In this document: positions 40,480 to 40,935 of the stretch, piece by piece
How the letters are laid out: every line of letters starts with the position of its first letter
Numbering within the stretch: the first letter of the stretch is position 1
Sequence record: NC_054928.1
Strand: one strand, 5' to 3'
Source of the DNA: Escherichia phage vB_vPM_PD112
DNA: 64,000 nucleotides
Program-made: the position numbers and the translations under genes
The notes under the pieces: model-generated
What the model saw: the letters and a program-made list of their open reading frames with translations, nothing else
Database searches by the model: none
What the model was told of the DNA's origin: nothing

Positions 40480-40935
40480 TTATTTTAAATCGTCTGCCCA
40501 ATCGAGTTTAAGAGGCTCTTTGTATTCACGATCTAATACGACCGGAATTTGTACATCACCGCTAAATGATAAGGGTCCAACATTATAAGACAATGTTATA
40601 TGCGGTGTGTAATCATCAAAATCATGTGTAGCACCTAGTGCCCGCGCATACATGTGTCTACAGCGCAGATATTCAGAATCTAGCACAAGTACAAGAGTCG
40701 ATCCATCTTGTGTTTTCCATACTTCTAAATGTCCAGAAGAAGCTACTTCAAAACTTCCACTCGATGGAACATATGGAACATTTACTCTCGAATAACATAT
40801 GGTCGAATGAATTTTTTCTCTAGGAACTGGATTAGGAACACGTAAAGAGCGCTGGAGTTCTTCCAGCGCATCAAGTGTTAATTCTGAAAACTTAGCTGCT
40901 ACATAAAGACCCGTTGAAAAGTCTTTAAATTCCAT
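40480..40935 (-). CDS. 57B: 2H-phosphoesterase-fold protein, 57B/Acb1-like (anti-CBASS cyclic-oligonucleotide phosphodiesterase)
   Basis: 151 aa; two HxT/S motifs (HSTI near res 43, HITL near res 112); position upstream of 57A as T4 57B. Confidence 0.65.

Follow-up and report, generated by a model that had tools for sequence, protein, structure and literature searches.

The acb1 gene (57B) of a T4-like phage, coding for the anti-CBASS phosphoesterase Acb1, and its neighborhood

In the window, the 64,000-nucleotide stretch of phage DNA that was analyzed, a set of genes familiar from T4 is encoded on a single strand (Table 1). Read along the minus strand, the order is 2, 3, 1, 57A, 57B, an internal-protein gene (ip), trna.4, trna.3, trna.2, and the tRNA cluster. 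The same order, also all on one strand, is found in NC_000866, the T4 reference record used for comparison. Gene 1 codes for the dNMP kinase (Pfam DNMK, 4.8e-104), and between positions 40373 and 43514 the window is collinear with T4 57B-57A-1-3-2 at 96.8% by blastn. The best 22-kb matches to the window, at about 96% identity, are the phages JEP6, SG1, and sutha; the window is that of a Tequatrovirus, but not of T4 itself. The gene 1 ORF codes for 237 amino acids, compared to 241 in T4. Farther along the strand, the middle of trna.3 (39707-39890) has no detectable similarity to T4 by blastn, and its product is 127 amino acids long rather than the 136 of T4.

Table 1. Features at and around acb1 in the window
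Feature	Coordinates	Strand	Basis
acb1 (gene 57B) CDS, 151 aa + TAA stop	40480..40935	-	ORF list, T4 comparison, Pfam, PDB
First catalytic HxT, H43-S44-T45 (T4 H44/T46), codons CAT TCG ACC	40801..40809	-	sequence + motif scan
Second catalytic HxT, H112-I113-T114 (T4 H113/T115), codons CAT ATA ACA	40594..40602	-	sequence + motif scan
Gene 57A, tail-fibre assembly chaperone, 80 aa	40935..41177	-	Pfam PF17594 GP57, 2.6e-50; phrog_1002 tail fibre chaperone
Gene 1 ORF	41177..41890	-	
PeSL-type promoter/stem-loop cassette	40402..40495	-	repeat, promoter-like site, hairpin
Gene in the ipI slot, internal head protein, 85 aa	40150..40407	-	phrog_3499
trna.3	39518..39901	-	
HNH endonuclease gene, 210 aa	38509..39141	-	phrog_14736, 6e-124
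SegB-like homing endonuclease, 221 aa	37296..37961	-	phrog_314, 8.5e-50
157-aa ORF	36351..36824	-	phrog_2280, 2.9e-60

The gene at the center of this work is the 151-amino-acid ORF that follows 57A on the minus strand. Its ATG start lies at 40935 and its TAA stop at 40480-40482, as read from the ORF list and the sequence, so that the bounds given in a preliminary description of this DNA are exact, with an ATG start and with the stop codon counted in. That description had also assigned the ORF to the position of T4 gene 57B, and this is where it lies, between 57A and the internal-protein gene. Its placement of the ORF “upstream of 57A” holds only in the sense of lower plus-strand coordinates; with respect to transcription, the ORF comes right after 57A, on its downstream (3′) side.

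Gene 57A is thus directly upstream of acb1 in the same orientation, an arrangement that is the same in T4, and its TAA stop and the ATG of acb1 run together as TAATG. At this junction (window 40933-40938), T4 has TGATG instead. In T4, 57B starts with two tandem ATGs (TGATGATGG...; GAATGATGGAA), and the annotated product is 152 amino acids long, whereas the counterpart in the window reads GAATAATGGAA. A single G-to-A change turns the TGA stop of 57A into TAA and eliminates the earlier of the two ATGs, so the product here has 151 residues and its residue numbers are those of T4 minus one. The absence of the T4 Met1 is presumably irrelevant, since the N-terminal stretch precedes the region aligned to the crystal chain of the Acb1 protein from Erwinia phage FBB1. 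The TAATG overlap also suggests that 57A and acb1 are probably cotranscribed, and they may be translationally coupled as well. A consensus scan of positions 39800-42700 assigns no promoter to 57A/57B, with 12 sigma-70-like sites found against the 10.5 expected by chance. The same scan found one terminator-like site where 1.8 were expected, and gene 1 contains one late-promoter-like TATAAATA (position 41540, minus strand).

The protein is the same as the T4 gp57B/Acb1 protein (NP_049750.1) at 151 of 151 residues, with no gaps. The nucleotide sequence of the gene shares 98.7% identity with that of T4, and all six differences in its 456 positions are synonymous in the 57B frame (five at third positions and one an AGA/CGA change), which points to purifying selection on this frame. 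No second coding layer was found in the region: the overlapping plus-strand ORFs are all short (38-61 amino acids), and the substitutions are silent in the 57B frame. Judged by its sequence, acb1 here is not a chance ORF.

The identity extends to the residues that do the work in the T4 enzyme. In T4 Acb1, a tetrad formed by two HxT motifs (H44, T46, H113, and T115) serves acid-base catalysis (Hobbs et al. 2022, PMC9117128), and a mutant with both histidines changed (H44A/H113A) is inactive (PMC9117128). The bases of the bound nucleotide are stacked by the aromatic residues Y12, W74, F107, and W147; E141 contacts the N6 of adenine; and residues 145-152 form a C-terminal lid (PMC9117128). All nine of the residues Y12, H44, T46, W74, F107, H113, T115, E141, and W147 are present in the window at n-1. 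They include the complete catalytic tetrad, as H43/T45/H112/T114, and the five published base-contact residues, and the C-terminus, lid included, is identical to that of T4. Two HxT/S motifs at the expected spacing had been noticed in the preliminary description; both prove to be HxT and are 69 residues apart, exactly the distance between H44 and H113 in T4. Neither of the two observations that the same description had set against its own reading, lack of similarity to T4 57B and loss of the catalytic histidines, was made: the comparison with the NC_000866 product gave full identity over the 151 residues, and on alignment both histidines are there together with their threonines.

Family profiles and known structures lead to the same assignment. 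The Pfam profile PF23474 (Anti-CBASS protein Acb1) matches with 202.7 bits (E 2.6e-60), where the gathering cut-off is 27, and residues 8-149 of the protein align with positions 1-144 of the 144 in the profile. A search of PDB sequences finds the FBB1 Acb1 (7T26/7T27) at 4.1e-62; the alignment spans 142 amino acids (68% identical, 85% similar) and has one single-residue gap. Another Acb1 structure, the distant 9Q2G, is also hit, at 0.004. FBB1 is a different phage, and its protein, solved in the apo form (7T26) and with a 3′3′-cGAMP analogue (7T27), serves as the template structure for both the 2H fold and its mechanism. The first HxT aligns with the H-T-T motif in the FBB1 crystal structure and the second with its H-I-T motif, and the C-terminal W is conserved too, whereas FBB1 has F and Y in place of the stacking aromatics W73 and F106 of T4 and the window. 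By homology to 7T26 (68% over 142 amino acids), the protein is predicted to have the compact 2H phosphoesterase fold.

Taken with the synteny, these results identify the ORF as acb1, gene 57B in T4, here carried by a T4-like phage (Tequatrovirus) and encoding the 2H phosphoesterase Acb1, with a probability of about 97%. Nothing was found that argues against this identity. The 57B/Acb1-type anti-CBASS phosphodiesterase proposed in the preliminary description is therefore supported by a fully matching T4 protein with its catalytic histidines and threonines kept. The feature itself is already known, being the T4 Acb1 protein in a T4-like phage. It agrees with its T4 counterpart in its 151 residues, tetrad, base-stacking residues, and lid, as well as in where it lies, with 57A upstream and an internal-protein gene downstream. 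It differs in the Met1 that only T4 has, in the six synonymous substitutions, and in its downstream neighbor, which is ipI in T4 and an Ip5-type gene here.

The same gene could be read as coding for a LigT-like 2′-5′ RNA ligase or an RNA-repair 2H enzyme, one that acts on RNA ends, such as those of products of the neighboring tRNA cluster, and not on immune signals. The 2H HxT/S motifs are common to LigT-type enzymes and the acb1 product, the tRNA cluster is only about 1.3 kb away, phrog_755 is described as “RNA ligase,” and RefSeq annotates T4 57B and many of its homologues in the same way. The LigT/2H superfamily (2′-5′ RNA ligases and cyclic phosphodiesterases) also shares with Acb1 a metal-independent chemistry that proceeds via a 2′,3′-cyclic phosphate (PMC9117128), but its members act on RNA ends, while Acb1 acts on cyclic di- and trinucleotide immune signals. 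At E <= 0.01, however, Pfam reports Acb1 alone for this protein and no match to a LigT or 2′-5′ RNA ligase family. Moreover, the identical T4 protein was identified as a cGAMP-cleaving activity, and its deletion phenotype is CBASS-specific (PMC9117128). Given the lack of a LigT-type profile match, together with published biochemistry and genetics that point to cyclic-oligonucleotide cleavage, the RNA ligase reading was rejected; it is highly improbable, and the biochemistry had already largely refuted it. No experimental basis or functional test for the name “RNA ligase” was found, and the name seems to be one that automated annotation transferred on the strength of superfamily similarity. Less probable still is a silent or decaying copy of acb1, not expressed or not functional, that would leave the phage unprotected from CBASS: although no promoter can be assigned above chance and the first of the two T4 start codons is lost, the reading frame is intact with zero amino acid changes against six synonymous ones relative to T4, the upstream 3 kb are 96.8% identical to T4, so that the regulatory context is retained, and the ATG that is left shares bases with the 57A stop, a configuration typical of coupled phage genes.

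What an intact Acb1 would do for this phage can be proposed from studies of the T4 protein. Experiments have shown that T4 57B is Acb1 (Hobbs et al. 2022, PMC9117128); fractionation guided by activity led to it as the source of cGAMP cleavage (PMC9117128). Deletion of acb1 from T4 abolishes cGAMP cleavage in lysates, and the mutant loses more than 300-fold in plating on CBASS hosts but grows normally without CBASS (PMC9117128). The enzyme cuts adenosine-containing cyclic di- and trinucleotides (3′3′-cGAMP, cUA, as well as cAAA) and leaves cGG, cA4, and 3′2′-cGAMP uncut (PMC9117128). Transcription of T4 57B is middle/late, and the cGAMP-cleaving activity appears about 15 min into infection. An independent screen by transposon sequencing also found 57B to be conditionally required on a CBASS host.

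From this published work on the same protein, we infer the chemistry, substrate range, middle/late timing, and anti-CBASS phenotype of acb1 in the present phage. Acb1 would be a small, metal-independent 2H phosphoesterase in which the four aromatic residues and the C-terminal lid clamp the bases of the cyclic nucleotide. The HxT/HxT tetrad would then use acid-base catalysis to cut 3′ of adenosine via a 2′,3′-cyclic phosphate intermediate, linearizing the signal. With the signal linearized, the CBASS effector would never be activated, and the infected cell would not be driven into abortive infection. The view that the phage is equipped to degrade CBASS signals, put forward in the preliminary description on the strength of motifs, gains support that goes beyond motif resemblance, as it can now draw on near-complete sequence identity to a protein that has been tested. 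With its intact Acb1, this phage should resist CBASS signaling by adenosine-containing 3′-5′ cyclic di- and trinucleotides. Acb1 should not, on the other hand, give resistance to CBASS systems that use cGG, 3′2′-cGAMP, or larger rings.

The gene is widespread, and it is often misnamed. At a coverage of at least 80%, acb1 is found in 558 deposited phage genomes, and in 501 of those it is at least 95% identical. Many records, that of T4 in RefSeq included, label it “RNA ligase” or “hypothetical protein.” Since the wrong labels persist in the records, the correct name, acb1, is worth propagating. The significance of acb1 here is limited to such annotation, and it opens no new scientific question.

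Near acb1, variation relative to T4 is found only in the neighbors, with an Ip5-type gene in place of the one for IPI and an HNH endonuclease gene in place of tRNA-Gln. The Ip5-type and HNH genes both recur in other deposited Tequatroviruses. The gene in the ipI slot codes for an internal head protein that is not T4 IPI, as only about 26 N-terminal residues align with the product of T4 ipI. Its DNA is 98.5% identical to an RB14 gene annotated as Ip5, and the gene is present in 250 phage records.

The Ip5-like gene lies between two directly repeated segments, each about 94 nt long (40074-40165 and 40402-40495), that are 81-84% identical to each other. Each copy starts within the last five codons of the gene upstream of it and carries TTTACA-17-TACTAT, with a hairpin around the -10 element. 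Because the repeats begin inside coding ends, Acb1 and the Ip5-like protein both end in DLK. The hexamers of both copies fit the published consensus of PST and T4 PeSLs, TTTACW-N17-TAYWAT (PMC4122927), while the hairpin stems differ between the copies (GATGAG/CTCATC vs TAGGGT/ACCCTA). The copy next to acb1, a PeSL-type cassette, begins in the last five acb1 codons and occupies the space up to the next gene. Its sigma-70-like site spans 40466-40438, and its hairpin, at about 40427-40458, has a z-score of -4.4. At its 3′ end, the acb1 transcription unit is probably bounded by this cassette, which would also provide the promoter of the Ip5-like gene.

One could consider, tentatively, a wider role for this arrangement. 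T4 IPI inhibits GmrSD (PMC9117128), and the slot next to acb1 is occupied by an Ip5-type gene here and by that for IPI in T4. It is possible, though rather unlikely, that acb1 represents the constant part of a small anti-defense island, and that the adjacent PeSL-bracketed slot accommodates an internal-protein cassette that can be exchanged. Phages sharing one Acb1 would then differ in the host restriction system that their injected protein neutralizes, with Ip5 inhibiting a defense other than GmrSD. If this were true, the recombination joint would lie inside the coding ends, since the repeat extends into the final five codons of acb1 and of the Ip5 gene alike, and the Acb1 lid would have its terminal residues encoded by the repeat.

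The HNH endonuclease gene lies exactly at the site of the T4 tRNA-Gln gene. Its product scores 17.3 bits against Pfam HNH, below the cut-off of 21.4, and its assignment comes from PHROGs; the gene is found in 62 phage records, in one of which it is annotated as F-TflIV. No tRNA-Gln was found by ARAGORN in positions 34000-42000, and blastn over the whole window gives only chance matches of 10-14 nt. The SegB-like homing endonuclease gene lies between the genes for tRNA-Arg and a tRNA with a CAT anticodon, which is the placement of segB in T4; the latter tRNA is called Met by ARAGORN and Ile in the T4 annotation. Compared with T4, the 157-amino-acid ORF, for which a PHROG family already exists, constitutes an insertion of about 520 bp that separates e.8 from rnaC. 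The N-terminus of its product, MKSYAQFLNEA, may resemble the leader of the T4 internal proteins.
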